Source: Escherichia coli
Lineage (GTDB): Bacteria > Pseudomonadota > Gammaproteobacteria > Enterobacterales > Enterobacteriaceae
NCBI RefSeq assembly: GCF_029227855.1
Contig: NZ_CP074356.1
Length of the DNA: 64,000 nt
Direction: 5' to 3' (one strand)
Below the pieces are notes generated by a model, which did not search any database, had not been told where the DNA came from, and saw nothing but the letters and a program-made list of their open reading frames with translations. How positions within the stretch are numbered: the first letter of the stretch is position 1; every line of letters begins with the position of its first letter. Position numbers and translations under genes: made by a program. Below, one piece after another: positions 46,382-47,710 of this stretch.

Positions 46382-46463
46382 GTAAGCGTACAGCCTGAAC
46401 CGTCTGGTCAGAATCTGACGAATTAGACAAAGTGGTGTCCACCAAATAAGTAGTGGGAACCAA
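46382..46463. repeat. orphan IS66-family left-end fragment (copy of 26853..26934)
   Basis: ~82 bp identical to the left terminus of the IS66-family element, then diverging where the IS3-family element begins. Confidence 0.5.
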
Positions 46464-47710
46464 TGAGGTAGCCTGAGTTTAACGGACACTCCTTCCTGAA
46501 ATAGAATGGCATCAGAAGGAGCTAATAATGAGCAGAAAAACCCAACGTTACTCTAAAGAGTTCAAAGCCGAAGCTGTCAGAACGGTTCTTGAAAATCAAC
46601 TTTCGATCAGTGAAGGCGCTTCCCGATTATCTCTTCCTGAAGGCACTTTAGGACAATGGGTTACCGCCGCCAGAAAAGGGCTCGGTACTCCTGGTTCCCG
46701 CACGGTGGCTGAACTGGAATCTGAAATTCTGCAACTGCGTAAGGCGTTAAATGAAGCTCGCCTTGAGCGAGATATATTAAATTGCACAGGAGTCGCTGAA
46801 AAATACGCGTTAATCGAACAATGGCGACAACAATTTCCCATTGAAGCGATGTGTCAGGTATTTGGTGTATCCAGGAGCGGTTATTACAACTGGGTACAGC
46901 ATGAACCCTCAGACAGAAAACAAAGTGATGAGCGGCTAAAACTGGAGATTAAGGTGGCACATATCCGCACTCGCGAAACATATGGAACCCGGCGGCTCCA
47001 GACGGAGCTGGCAGAGAATGGCATCATCGTTGGTCGTGACCGACTGGCACGTCTTCGTAAGGAGCTAAGGCTACGCTGTAAGCAGAAACGCAAGTTCAGA
47101 GCGACTACGAACTCGAACCACAATCTGCCAGTTGCGCCAAATCTGCTGAACCAGACGTTCGCTCCTACAGCACCAAATCAGGTCTGGGTGGCGGACCTGA
47201 CGTATGTTGCCACACAGGAGGGATGGTTGTACCTCGCTGGCATCAAAGATGTTTATACGTGCGAAATTGTCGGCTACGCCATGGGAGAGCGCATGACAAA
47301 AGAGCTGACAGGTAAAGCCCTGTTTATGGCGCTCAGGAGCCAGCGCCCACCTGCCGGGCTAATCCACCACTCTGATCGAGGTTCACAGTACTGCGCATAC
47401 GATTACCGGGTCATACAGGAGCAGTTTGGTCTGAAAACATCAATGTCGCGTAAAGGTAACTGTTACGACAACGCTCCGATGGAAAGCTTCTGGGGAACGC
47501 TGAAAAATGAGAGCCTGAGCCACTATCGTTTTAATAACCGGGATGAAGCCATCTCAGTAATACGGGAATACATTGAGATTTTCTACAATCGTCAGCGTCG
47601 TCACTCTCGTCTGGGGAATATCTCCCCGGCAGCCTTCAGGGAAAAATATCATCAGATGGCTGCTTAAAAAAAGAACAAATGGTAGTGTCCGCTATTGCCA
47701 GTACACCTCA
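46464..47710 (+). mobile_element. IS3-family insertion sequence with a single fused transposase ORF
   Basis: Ends tgaggtagcc… and …cacctca (imperfect inverted repeats); encloses the 379-aa transposase ORF. Confidence 0.55.
46528..47667 (+). CDS. IS3-family transposase, fused OrfAB-type (379 aa)
   Basis: N-terminal helix-turn-helix region and C-terminal DDE integrase core (…VWVADLTY…HSDRGSQY…) in one continuous frame. Confidence 0.8.
   Translation: MSRKTQRYSKEFKAEAVRTVLENQLSISEGASRLSLPEGTLGQWVTAARKGLGTPGSRTVAELESEILQLRKALNEARLERDILNCTGVAEKYALIEQWRQQFPIEAMCQVFGVSRSGYYNWVQHEPSDRKQSDERLKLEIKVAHIRTRETYGTRRLQTELAENGIIVGRDRLARLRKELRLRCKQKRKFRATTNSNHNLPVAPNLLNQTFAPTAPNQVWVADLTYVATQEGWLYLAGIKDVYTCEIVGYAMGERMTKELTGKALFMALRSQRPPAGLIHHSDRGSQYCAYDYRVIQEQFGLKTSMSRKGNCYDNAPMESFWGTLKNESLSHYRFNNRDEAISVIREYIEIFYNRQRRHSRLGNISPAAFREKYHQMAA

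Follow-up and report, generated by a model that had tools for sequence, protein, structure and literature searches.

Organization of the locus

The stretch of DNA analyzed here (the window) comprises 64,000 nt of one strand of the Escherichia coli contig NZ_CP074356.1 (assembly GCF_029227855.1) and carries, in a fec-linked island, one copy of the insertion sequence (IS) IS600 set directly against an 82-bp stub of an IS66-family element. Upstream lies a shf-capU-virK-lpxM block that ends at the stub, its last gene being a second, msbB2-like lpxM (45403..46347, plus strand). The stub occupies positions 46382..46463 (plus strand) and is cut exactly at the start of IS600 (46464..47710, plus strand), and a gene for a BCCT-family transporter (47815..49818, plus strand) begins 104 nt 3' of the latter; the two genes were taken from the open reading frame (ORF) list and the RefSeq annotation.

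The stub is an orphan left terminus. Comparison of sequences within the window revealed that 26853-26934 and 46382-46463 form an 82-nt direct repeat of 100% identity, for which a chance origin cannot be entertained. The first of these segments opens a complete IS66-family element (26853..29140, plus strand) that served as the reference for the stub and has the left end GTAAGCGTACAGCC... and the inverted right end ...GCTGTACGCTTAC. Matches of 98-100% to the stub were present in many E. coli records. No tnpA, tnpB, or tnpC follows it in the window's ORF list, IS600 coming directly next, and a matching IS66 right end is absent. The stub thus shares the terminal repeat of the IS66 family (tnpA-tnpB-tnpC, ends beginning GTAAGCG) and equals the first 82 nt of the complete member in the window, but it is a terminal piece only, without genes and without a right end; it is the truncation product of an IS66-family element and not an element itself. 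An exact IS66-family left terminus adjoining an IS3-family element had been proposed in the initial annotation, and both its coordinates and the 46463/46464 boundary were correct.

The adjoining element is a copy of IS600

IS600 is a 1264-bp member of the IS3 group of the IS3 family that was first described in Shigella sonnei. The name is used here on the basis of the RefSeq annotation "IS3-like element IS600 family transposase." The window copy measures 1247 bp instead of 1264 bp because of an internal 17-nt deletion (the allele termed d17), and it retains 5'-TG...CA-3' ends, with TGAGGTAGCC... at 46464 and ...ACACCTCA at 47710 as imperfect inverted repeats. The left inverted repeat (IRL), TGAGGTAGCCTGAGTTTAACGGACACT (46464..46490, plus strand), is common to all 45 IS600 copies extracted, and the right inverted repeat, GTGTCCGCTATTGCCAGTACACCTCA (47685..47710, plus strand), was located by alignment to the reference. 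Compared with the RefSeq-named IS600 of the Shigella flexneri plasmid pINV, the window copy has no mismatches in its first 318 nt, four in its last 929 nt, and one 17-nt gap, so that only 4 of 1247 aligned nt differ (99.7% identity outside the deletion).

The 379-aa transposase in one frame that had been noted earlier is encoded by a single ATG ORF (46528..47667, plus strand) that joins orfA to orfB, is preceded by the Shine-Dalgarno sequence AAGGAG, and is identical to RefSeq WP_000088357.1 ("IS3 family transposase"). Pfam assigned HTH_Tnp_1 to residues 3-75 (E value 2e-23), HTH_21 to residues 134-190, and rve to residues 214-312 (E value 6e-26), with rve_2 and rve_3 also matched; an rve core preceded by HTH domains is the arrangement of a DDE transposase. 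No solved structure related by sequence to this protein was found. A weak sigma-70-like match at 46479-46507 overlaps the IRL, and its frequency is no higher than in shuffled sequence.

No 3-bp target duplication flanks the window copy (CAA on the left, ACA on the right), whereas CCA, ACC, CAG, AAC, GAA, and GTC duplications were recovered at other IS600 copies; its lack here fits a later adjacent deletion or rearrangement. The window copy shares with the reference the inverted repeats, the OrfA N terminus, and the OrfB DDE core. By every sequence feature compared the element is IS600, and it departs only in the recoding feature and in the target duplication, both of which we attribute to secondary events.

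A 17-nt deletion removes the frameshift signal and fuses the two frames

In the reference, orfA (100 aa) reads TTA AAA AAA GCA, and a shift to the -1 frame enters orfB to yield a 385-aa OrfAB. A hairpin with a 9-bp stem (GCGUAUUUU/AAAAUACGC) begins 6 nt past the A7 run, and RNA folding of this region gave -23.9 kcal/mol (z score -2.3). The 6-nt gap fits the empirical rule that stimulators in the IS3 family start 4-10 nt after the slippery motif (PMC4066793). The initial annotation had pointed to a slippery run in related copies as the informative comparison, and the run (TTA-AAA-AAA-G) together with the hairpin was present in IS600 from Shigella pINV, E. coli plasmids, and E. coli ST131. RefSeq tags the copies of ST131 (L004) and N32 (L202) as "programmed frameshift."

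The window reads ...GATATATTAAATTGCACAGG... where the reference reads ...GATATATTAAAAAAAGCAACAGCGTATTTTGCACAGG.... The deletion junction, TTAAA|TTGCA (46777..46786, plus strand), falls between 46781 and 46782, and the lost 17 nt (AAAAGCAACAGCGTATT) cover the spacer together with four A's of the slippery seven and the greater part of the hairpin's 5' arm; they also contain the point GCAAC|AG at which IS30 inserts in other copies (see below). With the A_AAA_AAA slip site and the 5' arm removed, the predicted stem is gone and the fold falls to -14.8 kcal/mol (z score -0.3). A loss of 17 nt (2 mod 3) has the effect of a -1 shift and fuses the orfA and orfB frames, and the window copy accordingly has one 379-aa ORF in place of the 100-aa OrfA and the 385-aa frameshift product. 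At the protein level, wild type ..DILKKSNSVFCTG.. becomes ..DILNCTG.., with KKSNSVF replaced by N. The HTH, most of the leucine-zipper heptads, HTH_21, and the DDE core are kept, as are both ends of the element; the window haplotype further carries the substitutions P196S and S156R.

The two-frame layout with a slip site and hairpin was thus found in the reference copies and is missing from the window copy, and none of the reference IS600 copies compared showed a single ORF. On these comparisons, the single-ORF state is a derived mutant of IS600 and not the hallmark of another family, so that of the two options left by the initial annotation, a natural fused variant or a mutation affecting transposition control, the second describes the change: the fused state is a 17-nt deletion of the frameshift signal. 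As a mutant of a familiar insertion sequence, it leaves the picture of the family unchanged. RefSeq presents the fused d17 ORF as an intact transposase and gives the label "frameshifted" pseudogene to an IS600 at the same locus in E. coli IAI39 (L009, 3199-4352) that lacks 3 nt but retains both frames and the slip site; this annotation reverses the ancestral and derived states.

Distribution of the deletion and history of the home locus

The d17 junction was found at 468 places in 461 records, which represent 460 of 5426 complete E. coli genomes (about 8%). The maximum was two copies per genome, reached in 8 of the 460, and about 452 genomes held one. A gapped-pattern scan recovered further d17 copies, 29 in metagenome contigs and three in IMG/VR, most of them at the locus occupied in the window (the home locus); a scan of species-representative genomes found no deletion alleles. 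All 10 contexts returned for the exact 379-aa protein were likewise variants of the home locus. Fixation of the allele at a single chromosomal locus, in about 8% of complete E. coli genomes, the IS600 identity, and the IS30 coincidence described below go beyond what had been noted before. We give virtually no credence to an error of sequencing or assembly at a homopolymer: the junction does lie within an A-run, but the identical gap recurs in independent assemblies, namely 460 complete genomes, 29 metagenome contigs, and three IMG/VR contigs, and a loss of 17 nt does not resemble a homopolymer miscall.

The left junction (lpxM-IS66 stub-IS600) was present in 485 complete E. coli genomes. Among records with this junction, 28 (IAI39, CE10, NCTC86, and others) have a span of 585 nt versus 588 and lack the 17-nt deletion; in IAI39, the one of the 28 that was read, the slippery run is kept and 3 nt are missing. 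The right junction (IS600-BCCT) was present in 1494 complete E. coli genomes, including ST131, whose IS600 is of the frameshift type. Because the same left junction occurs with the slippery run kept and the right junction is shared with a frameshift-type IS600, a derivation in situ is indicated: judged by its junctions, the d17 allele is derived at the home locus and inherited there.

Genomes such as ST131 and 118UI lack positions 41855-46463 of the window (4.6 kb), which hold part of ISEc52, shf, capU, virK, lpxM, and the IS66 stub. The missing segment stops exactly at the left end of IS600, which suggests an adjacent deletion mediated by this element, and of the two forms of the locus, the long one, present in the window, is the older. 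A possible empty site was seen in E. coli C21 (L188, 2490-2510), where the BCCT gene is present without IS600 and homology to the window flank begins at 47711 (..gattc|ACAttcc..); BREX genes and a PDDEXK nuclease gene lie upstream. This junction may represent the pre-insertion site, with ACA as target. One metagenome contig (L046, OGJY01016564.1) combines d17 with the short-form left flank (an ISEc52 fragment) that is otherwise paired with IS30-occupied or scar alleles, implying either recombination between forms of the locus or a history more complex than a single origin. A plasmid match (H34) was rejected as a further example of the left junction, the 82-bp IS66 end and IS600 being 1.2 kb apart in it.

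We examined 36 d17 copies for signs of selection. The ORF is intact in 34, and the 21 nonsynonymous and 11 synonymous variants correspond to a ratio of nonsynonymous to synonymous rates (dN/dS) of about 0.58, which speaks for no strong constraint. These values bear on whether the transposase might have been domesticated for a host function, such as regulation of the BCCT transporter or the lpxM block. Such a role would agree with its residence at a single locus across 460 genomes and with an ORF that up to six single-nucleotide polymorphisms (SNPs) have left intact in 34 of 36 copies. The dN/dS is near the relaxed expectation, however, the ends of the element are still intact, and sister lineages get by with a copy that is disrupted by IS30, has lost its 5' half, or is of the frameshift type, so that we regard domestication as very improbable.

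IS30 inserts repeatedly into the IS600 recoding signal

IS30 was found within IS600 at the arrangement ...AAAAAAAGCAAC|IS30|ACAGCGTATTTT, with AC as a 2-bp duplication. In E. coli Nissle 1917, for instance, IS600 is broken right after ...AAAAAAAGCAAC by the IS30 end TGTAGATTCAAT..., and the other junction reads ...AATCTACA|ACCGCGTATTTT. Across 19 distinct left flanks of IS600, on plasmids, chromosomes, and prophage contigs, the same nucleotide is hit, in both orientations. All IS30-bearing copies examined (L201, L204-L207, and L209-L223) agree in the junctions GCAAC|TGTAGATT... and ...AATCTACA|AC(A/C)GCGTATT, and IS30 spans 1221 bp wherever both junctions were recovered. At the home locus, at least 40 complete genomes contain IS600::IS30; both halves of IS600 are present in 118UI and OkiPb01676, and the 5' half is lost in ATCC 8739. 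A literature search for a fused IS600 or for IS30 within IS600 returned no paper.

A preference for near-palindromic hot spots, attack with a 2-bp stagger, and a lack of precise excision are known traits of IS30 (PMC9333248). Here IS30 enters repeatedly at a single exact position and duplicates 2 bp, and the site, within the 26-bp IS600 segment TTAAAAAAAGCAACAGCGTATTTTGC, is partly palindromic, 7 of 12 positions being symmetric around the AC duplication. This case differs from described hot spots in its target, which belongs to another insertion sequence and serves as its recoding signal; the link to d17 is circumstantial. Only a minimum of at least two independent IS30 events can be claimed, because a composite IS600::IS30 could itself move. 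One IMG/VR genome (IMGVR_UViG_2869924733) contains six IS600::IS30 composites; the 2.5-kb composite may itself be mobile, or else IS30 strikes the site very often.

A second type of allele bears directly on what follows IS30 insertion. The ST131 copy (L004, NZ_CP103672.1, 5099-5150, equivalent to window 46750-46800) reads GCAAC-TGTAGATT-TTGC where the wild type reads GCAAC-AGCGTATT-TTGC. Through four clustered substitutions, the insertion point in this copy shows the 8 nt with which an IS30 end begins; the slip run is kept and the 5' arm of the hairpin is altered. This allele is almost certainly the scar of an imprecise IS30 loss. Host-mediated imprecise loss of transposons has a parallel in the "nearly precise excision" of Tn10.

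Origin of the 17-nt deletion

Two explanations of d17 deserve serious consideration. The deletion may be the scar of an imprecise loss of IS30 from this point, a reading to which we give slightly less than an even chance. Deletion alleles of 17, 14, 13, and 3 nt all span or touch the IS30 insertion point. Moreover, over the 3' 929 nt the window copy and the IS30-occupied alleles show 100% identity and share the derived T650, whereas the 3-nt-deletion allele differs at three sites.

Several observations weigh against this origin. No IS30 nucleotides are left in d17, and none of the long-flank (lpxM-IS66 stub) genomes has IS30 in the home IS600 (the two counts agree, at 485 and 486). Deleting the 17 nt directly from a wild-type copy requires equally many events and is equally parsimonious. 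The search was anchored on a 19-nt window, so that the clustering of deletions there is partly a matter of ascertainment. A less biased sample of 147 IMG/VR copies consisted of 136 wild-type sequences, five with A6, three with A8, and three point variants, and held no deletion of 3 nt or more. The idea of a strong deletion hot spot, based on four deletions in the 19-nt window, was tempered accordingly, since such deletions are missing from the IMG/VR sample and the search patterns covered that window only.

In the rival reading, the 17 nt were lost spontaneously, with the A7 run and the quasi-palindrome of the hairpin as promoting features and without participation of IS30; it is a credible competitor that we hold to be somewhat less likely than not. 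A7 runs are prone to insertions and deletions (PMC4066793), A6 or A8 alleles account for 8 of the 147 sampled copies, and the region folds into a stable hairpin. The missing IS30 residue and the want of any long-flank genome with IS30 at the site count on its side as well. The deletion breakpoints, on the other hand, have no microhomology; the closest relatives of the window IS600 are the IS30-occupied alleles at the same locus, and the sister allele in ST131 is an unmistakable IS30 scar. The absence of deletions of 3 nt or more from the 147-copy sample is also unfavorable to a spontaneous process.

A broader scheme can be put forward, tentatively and with somewhat less than even confidence, in which the IS600 recoding signal is a preferred landing site of IS30 whose loss rewrites the signal. 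Insertion of IS30 would silence an IS600 copy, and its imprecise loss would then leave end-scars or small deletions. Deletions of 2 mod 3 (17 and 14 nt) would give rise to frameshift-independent, OrfA-less transposase genes, and such fused alleles would reach several IS600 sites by transposition or gene conversion. The position of d17 on the hot spot suggests inactivation of one insertion sequence by another, followed by editing; were the scheme true, one insertion sequence would repeatedly re-engineer the translational control of another in natural populations.

Mobility of the fused element

The d17 allele would be translated from the ATG at 46528 straight to the stop at 47665-47667 to give an OrfAB-like 379-aa transposase. 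No frameshift would be needed, no separate OrfA regulator would be made, and the transposase level would depend only on the weak IRL promoter. Engineered frame-fused OrfAB proteins of IS911 (PMC2909936) and IS2 (PMC3219604) are active, so the 379-aa protein could be active by analogy. The laboratory fusions of IS911, IS2, and IS3, made by a one-base insertion in the slippery run, likewise provide transposase without frameshifting or a separate OrfA, but they keep the OrfAB residues, whereas d17 exchanges seven residues of the zipper/linker for one and is natural and fixed in a population. Alleles with one additional A (A8) in 3 of the 147 IMG/VR copies (L071, L072, and L095) would fuse orfA and orfB in the way of the laboratory mutants; these, like the five A6 copies, are either real alleles or homopolymer sequencing errors.

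In d17, hundreds of genomes carry a natural equivalent of the laboratory mutants, which makes it possible to ask whether an IS3-family element freed of frameshift control and OrfA becomes hyperactive in the wild. According to the population data, it does not. The near-universal single-copy state argues against hyperactivity, and low or no activity is preferred in view of the seven residues lost at the zipper/linker boundary, the P196S and S156R substitutions, and the failure of copy number to expand. We infer that the d17 copy is mostly sedentary, with low activity at most. The account as a whole, of an IS600 that lost 17 nt, was fused in situ, and has mostly stayed in place, we consider likely.

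Some observations weigh against a sedentary element. d17 also occurs with other flanks, two of which show 3-bp duplications, and 8 of 460 genomes have two copies. One such copy lies in a lambdoid prophage with the duplication CAG (L023 and also three NCBI genomes); an uninterrupted empty counterpart of this site exists, its span equal to the flanks minus the duplication. Another lies downstream of sat with the duplication AAC (L051 and L193-L195). A hybrid (L196) joins the left flank of the home locus to the right flank of the sat site, which means that home and sat copies were once in one genome and recombined. In other genomes the sat site holds wild-type IS600 (N32) or IS30-interrupted IS600 (Nissle 1917 and many others), and the d17 copy there bears the local SNP haplotype (650C, 698A, and 1221T). 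We therefore dropped the off-locus duplication at the sat site as proof of transposition; gene conversion or a recurrent identical deletion would explain this copy as well as transposition would.

A comparable allele arose independently in Shigella and enteroinvasive E. coli (EIEC). Its 14-nt deletion (d14, TTAAAATTTTGC) creates a 380-aa fused ORF, and it is found at three sites with the duplications CCA, CCA, and ACC, two in chromosome CP026836.1 and one on an EIEC pINV. All d14 copies are identical and share C168T and T169C relative to the window copy. One of the three sites holds IS600::IS30 in another genome. Wild-type IS600 is abundant in Shigella and EIEC (PMC7373316) and could act in trans.

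These data could also be read as an autonomous, frameshift-independent IS600 lineage in which the fused protein is active and d17 (and d14) elements move themselves, a possibility we judge unlikely but not negligible. The activity of the engineered IS911 and IS2 fusions agrees with it (PMC2909936, PMC3219604), as do the presence of d17 in at least six flank contexts, two with 3-bp duplications and one of these, the prophage site, with an empty counterpart, and the identical d14 copies at three sites, each with a 3-bp duplication. The local haplotype of the sat-site copy nevertheless favors gene conversion or recurrent deletion over a new insertion, and one d14 site is IS600::IS30 in another genome. 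About 452 of 460 genomes have a single d17 copy, the intact ends permit mobilization in trans by wild-type IS600, and the window haplotype carries P196S and S156R. Short Logan contigs that end at the right end of the element were considered as a sign of multiple copies without a wild-type helper and were set aside as uninterpretable, given assembler bubble-popping.

Other insertion sequences of the island

The complete IS66-family element at 26853-29140 has the inverted ends GTAAGCGTACAGC... and ...GCTGTACGCTTAC, and its homologue in O104:H4 is annotated with tnpA, tnpB, and tnpC. The window element is only 2288 bp long, with AAATAGTG and TTTTGTTC as flanks and no 8-bp duplication. The first frame past its left end reads ATG CAG AAA AAT GTG ACT CCC GGC AGG TGA and stops after nine codons; tnpA may be disrupted in the source strain. 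A canonical IS3 occupies 51408-52665 (1258 bp, minus strand), with separate frames of 102 and 288 aa and a 3-bp duplication, CAT. It apparently lies at the 5' end of the acuR regulator gene (by offset from the annotation of L001/L004), and the corresponding site in ST131 is uninterrupted. Finally, a 183-nt repeat of 95% identity is present at 30982-31190 and 56756-56938. One copy contains ...CTCTCCAGGAAACCCGGGGCGGTTCA, presumably an IS3-family end of the IS629/IS1203 type, which it resembles, and the two copies appear to be further IS remnants in the island.

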